DNA of 10,085 bases from positions 1 to 10,085 of the forward strand of contig NZ_BCZP01000051.1 in the NCBI RefSeq assembly GCF_001598795.1. Reading direction: 5' to 3'. The DNA comes from Delftia acidovorans NBRC 14950. Its GTDB lineage: Bacteria; Pseudomonadota; Gammaproteobacteria; Burkholderiales; Burkholderiaceae_C. Positions 517 to 4,579 of the stretch are shown in pieces. The notes under the pieces are model-generated. The model was not told the DNA's origin. It worked only from the letters and a program-made list of their open reading frames with translations, and made no database searches. Made by a program: the position numbers and the translations under genes. Each line of letters starts with the position of its first letter. Positions within the stretch are counted from its first letter, which is position 1.

Positions 517-753
517 TGGTTGGTCAAAGAAGGTGGTGCCGCACCAGGCGTAGAGCAGCATTCCGCTGTGCCGGGCCTCGTCCAGTGCCGCATATCCCGC
601 GTTGGTCAGCAGCGCGCATGCGCTCCAGATCAGGGGTTCGCCGGCGCCCTCGCGTTCCATCACGGCGCCTTCGGCCAGGTCGCGGAAGTAGGTGGCCAGC
701 CAGAACGGGCCGGCAGGGGTTGGCGGCGGTGTCTCGGGATACGGCGGGCTCAT
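502..753 (-). CDS. hypothetical phage protein, paralogue B of a tandem pair (83 aa)
   Basis: This is an internal Met of track ORF 502..855(-): MSPPYPETPPPTPAGPFWLATYFRDLAEGAVM...ARHSGMLLYAWCGTTFFDQPTARH. Its ATG overlaps the TGA of the upstream gene as ATGA (750-753). It shares the FWLxxYxxDLAE and SG(L/M)LLYAW(P/C)GTTFFD motifs with the 750..1091 product. Confidence 0.65.
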   Translation of the reverse strand: MSPPYPETPPPTPAGPFWLATYFRDLAEGAVMEREGAGEPLIWSACALLTNAGYAALDEARHSGMLLYAWCGTTFFDQPTARH

Positions 754-1091
754 TGGTGCTGCGTGCCCGCGTCGAAAAACGTGGTGCCGGGCCAGGCATA
801 GAGCAACAGGCCCGAATCCCTGGTGTGTCGGGCTGATTGAGCCATCTTGTCCCAAAGCTGGATCGATGCGCTATTGGCGGCCATTTCGGTGATGCGATCC
901 ACTTTGGGCCCTTTGGTTGTGTTGAGCTTGTCGTAGAGCGCTTTCATGGCAACTTGCTCCGCGAGGTCGATCAAATAGGCGGAAAGCCAGAAGTTGGGAT
1001 GACTGGTTTCAAGCCAATCCGGATAGGCCATGCATAGGTGTTCGGCCTTCGGTTTGCGAAGTGGGCGACGCGATGGGGTGGCGTTTGCCAT
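750..1091 (-). CDS. hypothetical phage protein, paralogue A of a tandem pair (113 aa)
   Basis: This is an internal Met of track ORF 750..1220(-): MANATPSRRPLRKPKAEHLCMAYPDWLETSHPNFWLSAYLIDLAEQVAM...RDSGLLLYAWPGTTFFDAGTQHQ. GGAG lies 7 nt upstream of the ATG at 1091. An alternative start is the ATG at 1031 (MAYPDW...), which aligns with the start of paralogue B. Confidence 0.65.
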   Translation of the reverse strand: MANATPSRRPLRKPKAEHLCMAYPDWLETSHPNFWLSAYLIDLAEQVAMKALYDKLNTTKGPKVDRITEMAANSASIQLWDKMAQSARHTRDSGLLLYAWPGTTFFDAGTQHQ

Positions 1092-1342
1092 GGCAGATCT
1101 CCAGTGGTGGGCGAGACGAATAAAAAGGCCGGTGCCGCGTGGCGGCTGCGTGGGCGAGATGGCTGGTGGTTGCGAAGTGAGAAGCCCAGGCCCGGCGAAA
1201 AGATGGCTTGAGGTGATCAAAAACTAGCTGATGCGTGCGCTGCATTGCATTTGGACTTCTTACGGTTCCAACTACACGCGGGAGGGCTGGTCGTGGGTAT
1301 CGCCTCTATCGAGGTTGAGCGCGCGCGACGGCGACAAGGGTC

Positions 1343-1723
1343 ATGACCACAAAGGAATGGATTGAGATAAGCATCCAGCTCGCATCGTTGATTGCCACGG
1401 CCTGGGTTGGCGTGAGTTCAATCAAGCTGCAACGAACCCAGATCAGCGCCGCCAAGGCCGCAGAGCAAGCGGCGGAGACGCCTACGATCCAGAGATGGAA
1501 GTGGTTCAAATCACGTGCTGGTGGTTTCGCGTTCATGTGGCTCCCGTCTGTCGCATGGTTGGTCTATGCAAGCGTGCAGGCAGCGCCTGTCACCCGTTTC
1601 ACGTTGCTCCAGTTCTCGCTGCTAACCATCTGGTTCCTGGCTTACGCGGAGATGGTTGTGGTCTTTGCGTTTGCTGCAGCGCTATCACCCCTGCGGTTCT
1701 TGCAAGAGGCCTCGCCGAAGTAG
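1343..1723 (+). CDS. small multi-pass membrane protein (126 aa), function unknown
   Basis: The ATG at 1343 is preceded by AAGGG. Three hydrophobic stretches are present: IEISIQLASLIATAWVGVSSI, GGFAFMWLPSVAWLVYASVQAA and FTLLQFSLLTIWFLAYAEMVVVFAFAAAL. GC3 is about 70 percent by eye, higher than the antisense ORF 1306..1536. Confidence 0.6.
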   Translation: MTTKEWIEISIQLASLIATAWVGVSSIKLQRTQISAAKAAEQAAETPTIQRWKWFKSRAGGFAFMWLPSVAWLVYASVQAAPVTRFTLLQFSLLTIWFLAYAEMVVVFAFAAALSPLRFLQEASPK

Positions 1724-1803
1724 GCGAAAAGAAGGCCGCATGTGCATCCAAAGGCGGGTGCTTGAGAGGGCGGATGCGCGGCGTCAAACCGAAGCGCCCT
1801 GCA

Positions 1804-1822
1804 ACCCAAGACGCTTGGGTTT
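1804..1822 (+). terminator. weak hairpin downstream of the membrane-protein gene
   Basis: ACCCAAG-ACG-CTTGGGT followed by only TT. The stem is short and the tail is poor. Confidence 0.25.
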
Positions 1823-1831
1823 GGGCAAGCA

Positions 1832-1860
1832 GTAAAGAAAAAGCCCGCAGAAGCGGGCTT
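1832..1860 (-). terminator. rho-independent terminator of the nuclease-fold gene
   Basis: On the minus strand the sequence reads AAGCCCGC-TTCT-GCGGGCTT followed by TTTTCTTTACT. It begins 24 nt after the stop codon at 1884. Confidence 0.75.
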
Positions 1861-1883
1861 GATCGACTTATCGAGAGACGTAG

Positions 1884-3041
1884 TTACTCAGACTTGCGCT
1901 TGAAGTTTTCGTCGTTTTTGCAGAAGAGAAGCGTGTCGTTGATGATGCCTGCCAAGCGCAGGAGGTTTTCTGGTTTTTCCAGCACGACTGTATCGCCAGC
2001 TCCCATGGTCATGCGCGCGCGATTGATTTCTTCTTTGTGTGCCGCCGACAATGTGATGCCAAATTGCACCGTGGGTGTTTTCTTGTCGCCCCAGTACCGG
2101 ACAAGCCAGCGATTCGTTTTTCCTTGGTACAGGACCGCGTAGTAGCTCTCTGTGTCGCGCCCCTGCAGATCTTCGCCTGGAAGCAGATCGGCGATGGTGT
2201 CGAACAGCTTTCGTTCATTTGCTGTCGTGACAATCTTGGGGTTTATTGGGTCCACTATCGGTGCGTCTGGATCCTGGATCTCCGCGAGGATGACCGGATC
2301 GGGGGCGGGATCAGGCGTCTTGTTGAGCGATGTAGCCACCAGGGCGCTTACGGAGTGGGCCAGCGCTTGCTTGACGATGGGCTGCATCTGTTCTAGGAAG
2401 CGAGCCGTGAACGTCCTCTGGATGTTGGCCCTGCCGGCAACATAGCGCACAAAGTCCGTGTCACATTCTTTGAGTATGTCGCCGATGGTGTCTCGGAATG
2501 CGCTCAGATAGATGCTCTCTTCGGCGAGCGCGCGGAGGGCGTCGGGTTGAAACTGGTCATGATGGAAGCGCAGCAGCTGCTCTGCAGCATCGTCGGTGGG
2601 CTTGTCCAGATGCAAGGTCAAGAACGGCTTGTCGTCCATGATGTTCTTGTTCACGAGGTCGGTGAAAAACCTCCACTCCCTGCCGTTCGTGATGGCCGAA
2701 ATGGCCACTTCAGGCGTAGCGTTGTAATAGCGGGACAGCTGTGGGCAATGGTTGTTCAGGTTCTGACTGCAAGCCTTTGCCTCAATGAACATGACGGGGA
2801 GGCCGTTAGAGAAGAGTGCGTAATCCACGCGCTCCCCTGCCTTTGCTCCCGGAAAGTCTGCAATGTGCTCAGCCCGAACCTTGGTTGGGTCGAATGCACT
2901 GAATCCAAGAATGTCAAGTAGTGGAAGTATGAGTGCCTGCTTTGTCGTTTCTTCTGTGGTACAGAACTCCGAAACCTTCTTTATGTGCTCTGTGTGCGCC
3001 AAAACGCGCTGTTTAAATGCTTCCACCCTGTCTACTCCCAT
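1884..3041 (-). CDS. HsdR-N-terminal-like (PD-(D/E)xK nuclease fold) domain protein with an uncharacterised C-terminal module; candidate phage-borne defence or exclusion factor
   Basis: The long ORF is 1884..3068(-). The N-terminal region is ...TEETTKQALILPLLDILGFSAFDPTKVRAEH...GERVDYALFSNGLPVMFIEAKA...QLSRYYNATPEVAISAITNGREWRFFTD. It matches my memory of the 'type I restriction enzyme R protein N terminus' (HSDR_N-type) domain, with a D...E-x-K core (VDY / IEAK). A Pro/Asp-rich linker (PDPAPDPV...DPDAPIVDP) follows, then a C-terminal module of about 100 aa (RDTESYYAVLYQGKTNRWLVRYWGDKK...). The start is uncertain: ATG 3041 (chosen), TTG 3068, or GTG 3026 (GGGAG 8 nt upstream). None has a strong SD. 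The gene is markedly more AT-rich than its flanks. Confidence 0.85.
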   Translation of the reverse strand: MGVDRVEAFKQRVLAHTEHIKKVSEFCTTEETTKQALILPLLDILGFSAFDPTKVRAEHIADFPGAKAGERVDYALFSNGLPVMFIEAKACSQNLNNHCPQLSRYYNATPEVAISAITNGREWRFFTDLVNKNIMDDKPFLTLHLDKPTDDAAEQLLRFHHDQFQPDALRALAEESIYLSAFRDTIGDILKECDTDFVRYVAGRANIQRTFTARFLEQMQPIVKQALAHSVSALVATSLNKTPDPAPDPVILAEIQDPDAPIVDPINPKIVTTANERKLFDTIADLLPGEDLQGRDTESYYAVLYQGKTNRWLVRYWGDKKTPTVQFGITLSAAHKEEINRARMTMGAGDTVVLEKPENLLRLAGIINDTLLFCKNDENFKRKSE

Positions 3042-3105
3042 TGAAATGAAATGCAACGATCGTAGCAAAACAATTAATGCAAAGAGGAAATGACGTGGAA
3101 TGAGT

Positions 3106-3139
3106 GGAGGCCTCTTTGCAGCCCTGCGCGGAGGCCTCC
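3106..3139. other. composite perfect stem-loop built on the self-complementary decamer GGAGGCCTCC
   Basis: GGAGGCCTC (3106-3114) pairs with GAGGCCTCC (3131-3139). The inner stem is GCAG-CC-CTGC (3118-3127). There is no U-tract on either strand. It lies in the 5' region upstream of the nuclease-fold gene. On the minus strand it contains AAGGAGG with no start codon at a usable distance. Confidence 0.5.
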
Positions 3140-3175
3140 TTCAGTCGTTACCGCGCCACGACTGATGGGCGCCAC

Positions 3176-3204
3176 TTGATAGTGGGCAAGCCCTGTAGCG
3201 TCAA
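3176..3204 (-). promoter_or_regulatory. candidate sigma70-type promoter that could drive the nuclease-fold gene independently of PL
   Basis: Minus strand: TTGACG (3204-3199), 17 nt spacer, TATCAA (3181-3176). This is a motif match only. Confidence 0.3.
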
Positions 3205-3320
3205 CACGCGCCACGCAGCGCGCTCGACCAGGGAGGGCCAGATTTCGCGCACTTCCTGGTCTGCAGGCGCGGGGTCGGGTGCAGGGCGCTTTCTACAAAG
3301 TGGCGCCTTGGGTATCCAGC

Positions 3321-3355
3321 AACAGAGAGAAAGACCGAGGGACGTGCCCTCGGTC
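3321..3355 (-). terminator. intrinsic terminator about 40-70 nt downstream of the PL-like promoter
   Basis: Minus strand: GACCGAGGG-CACGT-CCCTCGGTC, a perfect 9-bp stem, followed by TTTCTCTCTGTT. Confidence 0.6.
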
Positions 3356-3399
3356 GATGCCGTGGTGCCCGGCGCTGCCGGTTGGGGCGGCGCCGGATG

Positions 3400-3429
3400 A
3401 TTGTAAACACGTTTACATAAACGGTGCAA
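3400..3429 (-). promoter_or_regulatory. PL-like leftward early promoter with embedded operator
   Basis: Minus strand: TTGCAC (3429-3424), 18 nt spacer, TACAAT (3405-3400). The -10 hexamer is the outer half of the TGTAAACACGTTTACA palindrome. The module is near-identical in layout to the promoter in front of the cro-like gene. Confidence 0.6.
3402..3417. promoter_or_regulatory. repressor operator (OL-type), TGTAAAC-AC-GTTTACA
   Basis: 7+7 bp perfect inverted repeat. The same half-sites occur in the perfect 18-bp palindrome at 4123-4140. Confidence 0.65.
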
Positions 3430-3434
3430 ATGAT

Positions 3435-3452
3435 TTGTAGATGAATTTACAA
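3435..3452. promoter_or_regulatory. second, degenerate operator-like site
   Basis: TTGTAGATGAATTTACAA matches TTGTAAACATGTTTACAA at 13 of 18 positions. The outer TTGTA...TACAA arms are conserved. Its centre is 34 bp from the 3402-3417 site. Confidence 0.4.
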
Positions 3453-3673
3453 AATCGGATTTTCCCAATCCAAAAAAATTCCCTTGTGAAGCGTGTTGGG
3501 GTGCGGCTATGATTCAGATATGTATGGAAACACAGTACTCTCGAGCGAGGCTGAAGAGCGAACGCTCGTCAGAGTACGCGGCGCGAACGAGGCCGAAGTG
3601 GGGGTCGAAGTGTGTTTGAGCGAACTGACGCGCCAGGGCGTGAAGGCCCTAATTTTCCCCAACGAGGAACTGC

Positions 3674-4078
3674 TTAGGACTTGGCGGCTGCGTCTTGCAG
3701 CACTTGCATGATGGCAGTGCTGGCAGCGTTGAAAGCTTTTGCGCGACTCAGCTTGTCGGACTGCGAGATCATGTCGAAGAGCACCGCCAACTCTACTGCA
3801 GCCGGGGATAGTTCTGTGGGAGCGTTGATCGCTGGCGGCTGGTCCATCTGGCCTTCACCGGTCAGTAGCCATCTCGAATTCACCTTGAGATAGGCGGCAA
3901 CTTTTTCATGCGCCTCGGTGCGCAGCTTTTGGTCCCGCCCCTTGGCGTTCGTCAGGATCATGCCAATGTTCTGAACGGACGTGCCTGCCGCGGCAGCAAC
4001 GTCCTTACGCTCGATCTCACGCCCAAGCGCCTCTGATCGCTTCTGCATGGCTTGTAGTAGGCGTTCCCCATAGAGCAT
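3674..4078 (-). CDS. cI-like phage repressor, HTH (XRE/Cro-C1 type), 134 aa, no S24 peptidase domain
   Basis: MLYGERLLQAMQKRSEALGREIERKDVAAAAGTSVQNIGMILTNAKG...VAAYLKVNSRWLLTGEG is a typical HTH followed by the WLLTGEG motif. AAGGTG lies 4 nt upstream of the ATG at 4078. The gene is divergent from a cro-like gene, and palindromic operators lie between them. Confidence 0.85.
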   Translation of the reverse strand: MLYGERLLQAMQKRSEALGREIERKDVAAAAGTSVQNIGMILTNAKGRDQKLRTEAHEKVAAYLKVNSRWLLTGEGQMDQPPAINAPTELSPAAVELAVLFDMISQSDKLSRAKAFNAASTAIMQVLQDAAAKS

Positions 4079-4099
4079 GGCGCACCTTAATCCCTAATA

Positions 4100-4115
4100 T
4101 GTAAATTTGGTTGCC
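4100..4115. promoter_or_regulatory. degenerate operator-like site in the cI/cro intergenic region
   Basis: TGTAAATTTGGTTGCC matches the TGTAAACATGTTTACA core at 11 of 16 positions. Its centre is 24 bp from the perfect operator. Confidence 0.3.
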
Positions 4116-4141
4116 TCAGTTCTTGTAAACATGTTTACAAT
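4111..4141 (+). promoter_or_regulatory. PR-like rightward early promoter
   Basis: TTGCCT (4111-4116), 19 nt spacer, TACAAT (4136-4141). The -10 hexamer is embedded in the operator palindrome. It ends 5 nt before the ATG of the cro-like gene, which implies a leaderless or near-leaderless mRNA. Confidence 0.55.
4123..4140. promoter_or_regulatory. repressor operator (OR-type), perfect 18-bp palindrome TTGTAAACATGTTTACAA
   Basis: Perfect dyad symmetry. It lies between the divergent cI-like and cro-like genes and overlaps the -10 of the rightward promoter. Confidence 0.8.
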
Positions 4142-4146
4142 GAGGT

Positions 4147-4359
4147 ATGAAAAAAGATCACGCTATAGCGCTGCTGGGCGGTACGGCCAGGAAGGCCGCT
4201 GAAGCGATGGGCTATCGCGCAGTTCAAACCATCTACTTGTGGCCCGACGAACTGCCACAGGCGACCGCCGATCGTGTGATGGGCGCTGCCGCGCGGATCT
4301 CAAAGTCGGTAAGTGAAGGGTTGCCAACGTTCAGCAACCAGGAGGTGGCCCATGGCTGA
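4147..4359 (+). CDS. Cro / YdaS-like DNA-binding protein (70 aa)
   Basis: MKKDHAIALLGGTARKAAEAMGYRAVQTIYLWPDELPQATADRVMGAA... resembles the prophage Cro/YdaS family pattern (AI..LGG...A..LG....V..W......P...A). It is the first gene divergent from the repressor. Confidence 0.8.
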   Translation: MKKDHAIALLGGTARKAAEAMGYRAVQTIYLWPDELPQATADRVMGAAARISKSVSEGLPTFSNQEVAHG

Positions 4360-4579
4360 GATCCGCTCCCATCTCGATCACTACGCACCGGCCTCGTTGC
4401 GCGGTGTGACAGCTGTCAAAGACGGCTGGATCTGCATGTCGTTCAGCCAGGCAGGGCAGGTGGTTCGATTGCGTCTGCCCGTTGAAGATGCCCGGCATTT
4501 GGCCGGCTTCGTCGGCCCGTTCGGTTCCCAGTTGTCGGGTGAATCCTGCCGCGCCACCGATTTGACGGAGGGGCTGTGA
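4352..4579 (+). CDS. hypothetical early protein (75 aa)
   Basis: This is an internal Met of track ORF 4313..4579. AGGAGG lies 6 nt upstream of the ATG at 4352. It overlaps the cro-like stop by 8 nt (ATGGCTGA). GC3 is about 75 percent by eye. Confidence 0.65.
   Translation: MAEIRSHLDHYAPASLRGVTAVKDGWICMSFSQAGQVVRLRLPVEDARHLAGFVGPFGSQLSGESCRATDLTEGL

Follow-up and report, generated by a model that had tools for sequence, protein, structure and literature searches.

We analysed a 10,085-nucleotide stretch of Delftia acidovorans NBRC 14950 DNA (contig NZ_BCZP01000051.1), referred to here as the window, and focused on a gene at positions 1884-3026 of its minus strand that lies in a lambdoid prophage near the phage repressor gene and encodes a protein with a restriction-type nuclease head. 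With moderate confidence, we read this gene as a single-gene, restriction-like prophage defence nuclease that protects the lysogen from incoming foreign DNA, chiefly superinfecting phages. The strongest functional evidence for a role in defence is the comparative context of the gene family. In the proposed mechanism, the C-terminal domain of the protein would select the target and the nuclease head would cut it. The target would have to be modified DNA or another non-self feature because no cognate methylase is linked to the gene. Both the defence role and the kind of target are inferences. The gene is predicted to be expressed in the lysogen.

Relatives of the nuclease gene are widespread in phages and often directly follow a repressor gene

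Residues 16-386 of the nuclease protein align to positions 2-357 of the 357-position profile of the 'endonuclease' family phrog_4225, with an E-value of 1.2e-126. A word-indexed search found more than 1300 close relatives, and an exhaustive HMMER search yielded 3769 cluster representatives at 50% identity with E-values up to 1e-3. The homologues are 380-390 amino acids long, are conserved over their full length and share the same three-domain layout. The names given to the protein by NCBI are 'type I restriction endonuclease' and 'HsdR N-terminal domain-containing', and a homologue from JGI bears the name 'predicted type IV restriction endonuclease', which we take to be the COG4748 label. In length and layout the protein does not differ from this family. 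The gene is an ordinary member of the large, already named PHROG 4225 family and sits in a known kind of phage slot.

To describe this slot, we examined 16 contexts of relatives from five phyla. In most of them the gene is found on the same strand as, and directly after, a repressor gene. Cultured or induced temperate phages with annotated regulators in which it directly follows a repressor gene, or a repressor gene together with a gene for an ImmA-type protease, include Klebsiella KpF5, Streptococcus Javan316 and Enterococcus EG-TP1 and likewise, on the same strand, Corynebacterium Juicebox, Acetoanaerobium ANDSL2_ph1 and Fusobacterium FNU_1P. The same arrangement is present in three other Burkholderiales prophages (loci L013, L017 and L026), with a gap of 30 nucleotides between the repressor gene and the nuclease homologue in L017. 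Similar, less clear layouts are seen in Lacticaseibacillus P7.1, which is unannotated, and in Clostridium CWou-2020a, where helix-turn-helix regulators are located further upstream and a small hypothetical gene lies in between. The hosts of the repressor-adjacent phages are Proteobacteria, Firmicutes, Actinobacteria and Fusobacteria. An earlier note on this DNA, made from the sequence alone, had anticipated a lysogeny-associated defence context, and the same-strand position directly downstream of the repressor across these four host groups is as expected for such a gene. Other contexts include the edge of a prophage remnant. No hsdM or hsdS gene was found near the homologue in any examined context, comprising Pfam-annotated loci and annotated phage records; adjacency to such genes had been named in the earlier note as the mark of a Type I remnant.

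A census of IMG/VR gave a similar picture. Here, pattern searches found 220 relatives, of which the best 80 loci were examined; a close alignment served as query, which biases the census to proteobacterial relatives. A same-strand open reading frame of at least 100 amino acids was among the two nearest upstream open reading frames at 73 of the 80 loci. Based on a manual reading of 35 cluster representatives, a repressor-type or ImmA-type gene lies directly upstream at about half of the 80 loci, and a PHROG census detected phrog_4 ('transcriptional repressor') in 12 of the 35 clusters.

The hypervariable slot beside the repressor that holds the nuclease gene is also the site of lambda rexAB, P22/Rac sieB and Salmonella BTP1 bstA. 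The nuclease protein is however unrelated to their products; it has no KilA-N domain and no homology to Rex. BstA is a proven defence protein whose gene is likewise located downstream of the repressor gene and followed by its own terminator, and its authors describe the interval from cI to N as a mosaic hotspot (PMC8585504).

The protein joins an HsdR_N-type nuclease head to a C-terminal domain without a Pfam family

The nuclease gene and the parts of its product are as follows.

1884-3026, minus strand: nuclease gene, 380 amino acids, GTG start at 3026 (open reading frame list; start from homologue alignment and NCBI protein)
2622-2969, minus strand: PD-(D/E)xK nuclease domain of HsdR_N type, residues 25-140 (Pfam HSDR_N, E 8.9e-15)
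2322-2621, minus strand: helical connector, residues 141-240 (AlphaFold2 helices 166-191, 195-204 and 213-239; conserved across the family)
2247-2321, minus strand: Pro/Asp-rich variable linker, residues 241-265 (lowest conservation and most gaps in the family alignment)
1887-2246, minus strand: C-terminal alpha/beta domain, residues 266-385, putative DNA-binding or target-recognition module (domain model and Foldseek)

The start codon was assigned by comparison. All homologues begin with M-x-E/D-F-K, which aligns with the GTG at 3026, and the NCBI protein (P0004) is also 380 amino acids long. On these grounds, an upstream TTG (3068) and an in-frame ATG (3041) were rejected as starts. A GGAG is located 8 nucleotides upstream of the GTG. 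Residue numbers of the protein are given throughout in ATG numbering.

The N-terminal domain scores 55.5 bits against the Pfam HSDR_N model (PF04313), well above the cutoff of 25.1. Its catalytic motifs can be read directly from the sequence, with V72-D73-Y74 encoded at 2820-2828 (D73 at 2823-2825) and I86-E87-A88-K89 at 2775-2786 (E87-A88-K89 at 2775-2783), followed by a QxxxY motif at Q101 to Y105. The combination of QxxxY with D..ExK is a signature of the RecB family that has been described in EcoR124I HsdR (PMC2475608). We aligned 133 sequences, consisting of the query, 123 representatives of 50%-identity clusters and nine phage proteins, and found E30, K34, E58, D73, E87, K89, Q101, Y105 and G120 to be invariant. 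E30 and K34, which belong to an N-terminal helix, are thus as fully conserved (100%) as the D..ExK and QxxxY residues. Such strict conservation of the catalytic residues speaks for an active nuclease and against a decayed hsdR. The protein is predicted to be a catalytically competent single-chain DNA endonuclease.

The AlphaFold2 model of the protein (mean predicted local distance difference test score, pLDDT, of 80) shows an alpha/beta nuclease domain at the N-terminus, then the helical connector and a disordered stretch, and lastly a C-terminal domain that is compact. Foldseek searches with the N-terminal part returned BpuSI (3s1s, E 7e-3) and EcoR124I HsdR (2w00 and 6h2j, E 0.035-0.1); these E-values are weak, though the associated probabilities are 0.9-1.0. 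Judging from its length of 167 columns, the BpuSI match would extend into the connector. The PD-(D/E)xK core and the RecB-type QxxxY are common to the nuclease protein, Type I HsdR (EcoR124I) and Type IIG BpuSI. In contrast to HsdR and BpuSI, the nuclease protein has no superfamily 2 (SF2) translocase, methyltransferase or specificity subunit and instead carries a 120-amino acid alpha/beta domain. No helicase or methylase domain was found in a Pfam scan of the protein, and the NCBIfam HsdR models remained far below their cutoffs (TIGR00348, 15 bits against 284; PRK11448, 20.6 bits against 729). The earlier description of a standalone HsdR-N-type protein with a D...E-x-K signature (VDY...IEAK), neither helicase nor methylase, and a Pro/Asp linker therefore stands on each point, the linker being disordered with pLDDT values below 50 at residues 239-255.

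The C-terminal domain had been called novel. It is indeed absent from Pfam, with no family matched in the last ca. 120 residues of the query and none recurring in 30 diverse relatives, but it is a regular component of a known and very large family and is covered by PHROG 4225. The domain is modelled with pLDDT values above 90 within the full-length protein and, when modelled alone, with a pLDDT of 89.9 and a predicted template modelling score of 0.83, adopting the topology alpha, four beta strands, alpha, beta, alpha. Residues T273, E276, Y300 and R315 are conserved in at least 83% of the 133 aligned sequences. When the protein or a C-terminal domain profile was searched against PDB sequences, chance matches only were returned, and a word-indexed search with the domain alone recovered same-family fragments only and no other architecture. 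At the level of structure, the best matches, which cover the whole domain at template modelling (TM) scores of 0.5-0.63, are the 'double-wing' C-terminal DNA-binding domain of T4 MotA (1kaf/5jlt; E 2e-3 to 8e-2, TM ca. 0.5) and YdhG/DUF1801 (TM ca. 0.6). With identities of 13-17%, E-values of 2e-3 to 0.15 and no link at the sequence level, this is a likeness of fold only. Matches among the viral models of BFVD were MotA homologues, a protein named Alc, and DUF5655 and DUF1828 proteins. The domain most likely binds DNA or recognizes the target.

The gene forms a discrete mosaic segment in a hypervariable slot

An identical copy of the window forms part of a lambdoid prophage in Delftia acidovorans (CP066006.1, around 3.98 Mb, locus L004). 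One flank of this prophage carries an integrase, a C5-methylase and the early-left genes, and the other carries cro, a CII-like gene (Phage_CP76), a DUF1376 replication gene, terminase and portal. A megablast search with the whole window against phage records gave no match.

Relatives that share one flank with the window lose homology at ca. 1681 or ca. 3310. On the left, six Comamonas/Delftia prophages are homologous at the DNA level over exactly 1343-1681 and then not again until ca. 5400. On the right, homology with a prophage of Comamonas testosteroni JL40 (locus L109) ends at ca. 3305-3320. The JL40 prophage possesses the same immunity module as the window (78% identity for cI and 69% for cro, the same operators and the same leader of the left promoter, PL) and has neither the nuclease gene nor the small membrane gene described below, carrying different cargo instead. 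A further sibling, L012, was rejected as a marker of the right boundary as its cI is unrelated to that of the window. Because of these breaks, ca. 1682-3310 is a discrete mosaic segment of ca. 1.6 kb that consists of one gene, ca. 280 nucleotides of upstream DNA and a terminator.

1841-1860, minus strand: intrinsic terminator of the nuclease gene, AAGCCCGC-TTCT-GCGGGCTT followed by TTTCTTT (terminator scan)

Terminators are found in the equivalent position behind the homologues in L013, L014, L017 and KpF5. The earlier note had placed a strong terminator at 1832-1860 and considered it shared by two convergent genes. A terminator is present at 1841-1860, but its T-tract exists on the minus strand only; it serves the nuclease gene, and sharing with the membrane gene is not demonstrable. 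As a discrete insertion that is absent from close relatives and brings its own terminator, the segment has these two features of a moron, in keeping with the earlier view of a cargo cassette in a hypervariable slot by the immunity region. The same note had described the block at 1306-3100 as AT-rich. Its GC content is 55.1%, against 61.5% over the whole window, and no other 1.8-kb stretch is lower; the effect is real, but it is modest, and the entire region 750-4360 is low in GC (55-60%).

We also noted a sub-threshold match of Rfam RF02278 (Betaproteobacteria toxic small RNA) over the terminator (1835-1880, minus strand; 22.9 bits against a gathering threshold of 50, E 0.14), which is probably due to chance.

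In sibling prophages, the repressor-adjacent slot forms a small hotspot of cargo that is uncharacterised. It is located at 6159-6860 in L007, 5869-6697 in L008, 4001-4847 in L009, 2015-3112 in L010, 6244-7377 in L011, 861-2617 in L012 and 5790-8201 in L109. The cargo comprises a Peptidase_C92 protein, HicB with a small partner, HNH-like proteins, a vWA-like protein and a lipoprotein, and the slot also holds several proteins of 290-380 amino acids without a Pfam or PADLOC match.

The gene is placed downstream of PL and bracketed by terminators

The control region upstream of the nuclease gene contains the following elements.

3027-3310, minus strand: cassette-specific upstream region, with the most AT-rich stretch of the block just 5' of the start codon (boundary from alignment with L109)
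3333-3355, minus strand: PL-leader hairpin and T-rich tract, terminator-like, preceded by a second hairpin at 3369-3396 (terminator scan)
3401-3452, minus strand: left operators (OL; 3402-3417 and 3435-3452) and PL, with TTGCAC (3427-3422), 18 nucleotides and TACAAT (3406-3401) (same layout in L109)
3674-4078, minus strand: cI-type repressor, 134 amino acids, matching phrog_8, phrog_2328 and phrog_4, divergent from cro with an operator in between

The operator TGTAAACAYGTTTACA is present at 3402-3417 and again in the cI-cro interval at 4124-4139; by chance, 0.01 matches would be expected. The copy at 3435-3452 is weaker. The overlap with an operator identifies TTGCAC-18 nt-TACAAT as a PL-type promoter. 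That a PL-like promoter lies upstream of the cassette, as noted earlier, is accordingly supported by its operator control, and the gene order confirms that the block separates PL from the early-left genes.

Both PL-leader hairpins (fold z-score of -3.7) belong to the immunity module and not to the cassette, as the JL40 prophage, with its identical immunity type, has conserved this element. The element could represent a nut- or put-like antitermination element or an attenuator. Within the leader (3320-3400, minus strand), CACGGCATCGACC and a hairpin are conserved in JL40 (L109, 5690-5790). The unrelated PL leaders of L013 and L014 share the motif CAACCGGCAGC and contain GNRA-loop hairpins with one compensatory pair change.

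In the cassette-specific upstream region, a consensus-like promoter was read by eye (TTGACG at 3204-3199, 17 nucleotides, TATCAA at 3181-3176) and could be the nuclease gene's own, although a promoter scan called none on the minus strand of 3027-3310. A near-perfect 16-bp palindrome, GGAGGCCTCTTTGCAG/CTGCGCGGAGGCCTCC, with two copies of GGAGGCCTC, lies at 3106-3139 upstream of the nuclease gene; this putative element might be bound by a regulator or form a structure in the mRNA.

The location of the nuclease gene relative to PL bears on an alternative that we consider unlikely, namely that the protein is a lytic-cycle nuclease, encoded by the first gene of the early-left transcript from PL and made only once the prophage is induced or a cell infected. 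It would then serve the phage itself, for instance by degrading host DNA, by acting in recombination or replication processing, or as a counter-defence. Such a nuclease would fit the position of the gene in the window, L013 and L014, where it shares its strand with the operator-controlled PL and lies downstream of it, as well as the early-left genes that come after it and the lack of a convincing promoter for the gene alone. The gene order of the window recurs in L013 and L014 and is repressor, terminator, PL, leader, gene, terminator. However, in L017 and KpF5 the gene is located upstream of PL: it comes right after the repressor gene, and a terminator separates it from OL/PL, exactly as for rex in lambda. 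In that respect the cassette in the window, being downstream of PL, differs from lambda rex, which lies between cI and PL. Gram-positive phages, moreover, carry the gene in a lysogeny module with repressor, ImmA and integrase genes. In the window itself, terminators bracket the gene on both sides (3355-3333 and 1860-1841). Finally, its absence from the JL40 prophage with the same immunity module marks it as an accessory gene and not a core early function.

Two further observations concern the immunity region. A 72-amino acid open reading frame with a GTG start (3493-3711, plus strand) runs antisense to the interval between cI and PL, extending into the 3' end of cI. Two assemblies (L005 and L006) annotate it as a gene, and a sigma-70-like site is located at 3484-3513, but it has no family match, and its reality is doubtful. 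On the other side of cI, the -10 element TACAAT of a right promoter (PR) type ends 6 nucleotides before the ATG of cro at 4147 (region 4124-4147). Because of this short distance, the cro mRNA may be leaderless or nearly so.

A restriction-like defence nuclease is favoured over a suicidal one

Solitary modification-dependent (Type IV) restriction enzymes such as Mrr are comparable. They also consist of one polypeptide with a PD-(D/E)xK nuclease and a small putative DNA-binding domain and have no linked methylase. This likeness explains how a lone nuclease can be tolerated. Like a Type IV enzyme, the nuclease in the window is solitary and has no cognate methyltransferase, as the cassette contains a single gene and its neighbours vary by locus. 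The domain order is however reversed compared to Mrr, the nuclease being N-terminal here, and no modified-base reader domain (SRA, YTH, Mrr_N and the like) was detected in Pfam scans of the query and 30 relatives.

At the level of the family, we tentatively suggest a wider and less probable proposition. PHROG 4225/COG4748 might be a widespread one-protein prophage immunity nuclease in which the MotA-CTD-like domain reads a base modification or a phage-specific structure and thereby licenses the HsdR-type head to cut. This architecture would be one not yet described, spread by temperate phages via the slot beside the repressor.

Several points weigh against a defence function. One relative is a solitary chromosomal copy in a kynurenine-pathway locus, and the remaining IMG/VR loci have the gene behind Q-like antiterminators, NinG, tail or baseplate genes or lipoproteins, all of them typical places for morons. 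In the window, the gene lies downstream of PL and not between cI and PL, its candidate promoter is only consensus-like, and its transcription could be limited to the time after induction. The C-terminal domain resembles MotA and YdhG marginally (E of at least 2e-3, TM 0.5-0.6) and at the level of fold only. PADLOC-DB v2 contained no significant model for the protein, the best being REase_MTase_IIG with an E-value of 0.015 and 11.4 bits, and our literature searches returned no functional or experimental study of the PHROG 4225/COG4748 family. In addition, a defence nuclease of this kind would have to spare the prophage's own DNA on induction.

A toxic nuclease acting in abortive infection or addiction is, in our estimation, quite improbable. 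Such a protein would be made in the lysogen in an inactive form until a phage cue, sensed via the C-terminal domain, triggers destruction of cellular and phage DNA and cell death. The slot is shared with BstA, which is an abortive-infection protein (PMC8585504). One homologue is found beside genes for Abi_alpha, HigB and a PLD-family protein, and a Porphyromonas phage copy is located behind HicAB. The conserved acidic and aromatic residues of the C-terminal domain (T273, E276, Y300 and R315) could form a ligand pocket and not a DNA surface. An enterobacterial version of the gene is present in 3 of 5426 complete E. coli genomes and is interrupted by IS1 in two of the three, which may hint at a fitness cost. 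Three copies are too few to conclude this or to argue for toxicity. There is also no linked antitoxin or partner, the neighbours vary, and we found no evidence for a trigger.

The convergent membrane gene is a backbone gene and not a partner of the nuclease

To the left of the nuclease gene, and convergent with it, lies a small membrane protein gene.

1343-1723, plus strand: 126-amino acid membrane protein gene, convergent with the cassette, Comamonadaceae backbone (codon-position divergence)

The protein had been proposed earlier from the sequence, and two lines of evidence indicate a real gene. Divergence from homologues is 0.47-0.54 at third codon positions compared to 0.12-0.18 at first and second positions, as expected for coding DNA, and the product contains about three hydrophobic segments (approximately residues 6-26, 60-79 and 87-114). 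No Pfam, PHROG or PADLOC match was found for it. Homologues form only seven clusters, the named ones all from Delftia or Comamonas.

Lambda RexA and RexB form a two-component exclusion system, and by analogy the earlier note had considered a pairing of the nuclease-fold protein, as sensor or effector, with the convergent 126-amino acid membrane protein. The two genes are indeed adjacent and convergent. Nonetheless, six sibling prophages (L007-L012) keep the membrane gene in the same slot beside different, unrelated cargo, the DNA homology shared with them covers only the membrane gene, and no gene like it was found beside the nuclease at the examined homologue loci outside this prophage. Given this lack of co-occurrence, the pairing is effectively refuted and we regard it as very improbable. 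On these cassette comparisons, the membrane gene is a conserved backbone gene that is restricted to Comamonadaceae and is not a companion of the nuclease.

In the window and in L007-L012, the membrane gene is always oriented against the early-left operon and forms an anchor at the edge of the hypervariable slot. Due to this orientation it cannot be transcribed from PL and would need a separate promoter. Its product may be a superinfection-exclusion protein in its own right.

That the nuclease gene is a truncated, functionless hsdR left over from a Type I restriction-modification system, as the NCBI name and a Pfam match confined to the HsdR N-terminus might suggest, is scarcely credible and is refuted by the gene contexts without hsdM or hsdS and by family-wide conservation, that is, full-length conservation across ca. 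3769 cluster representatives, an invariant active site and a specific C-terminal domain in place of the motor.

Implications for prophage-encoded immunity

The nuclease family is carried by temperate phages of at least five bacterial phyla and is usually wired to the repressor. If the reading of the gene as a restriction-like defence nuclease is true, it would be a candidate one-gene anti-phage nuclease that is absent from PADLOC v2. It would also add to the cargo of the repressor-side hotspot, besides Rex, SieB and BstA, and give a function to a C-terminal domain without a Pfam family. Taken alone, the window is of modest weight. The pattern across the family is not surprising in kind and represents a reasonable lead for the discovery of defence systems.

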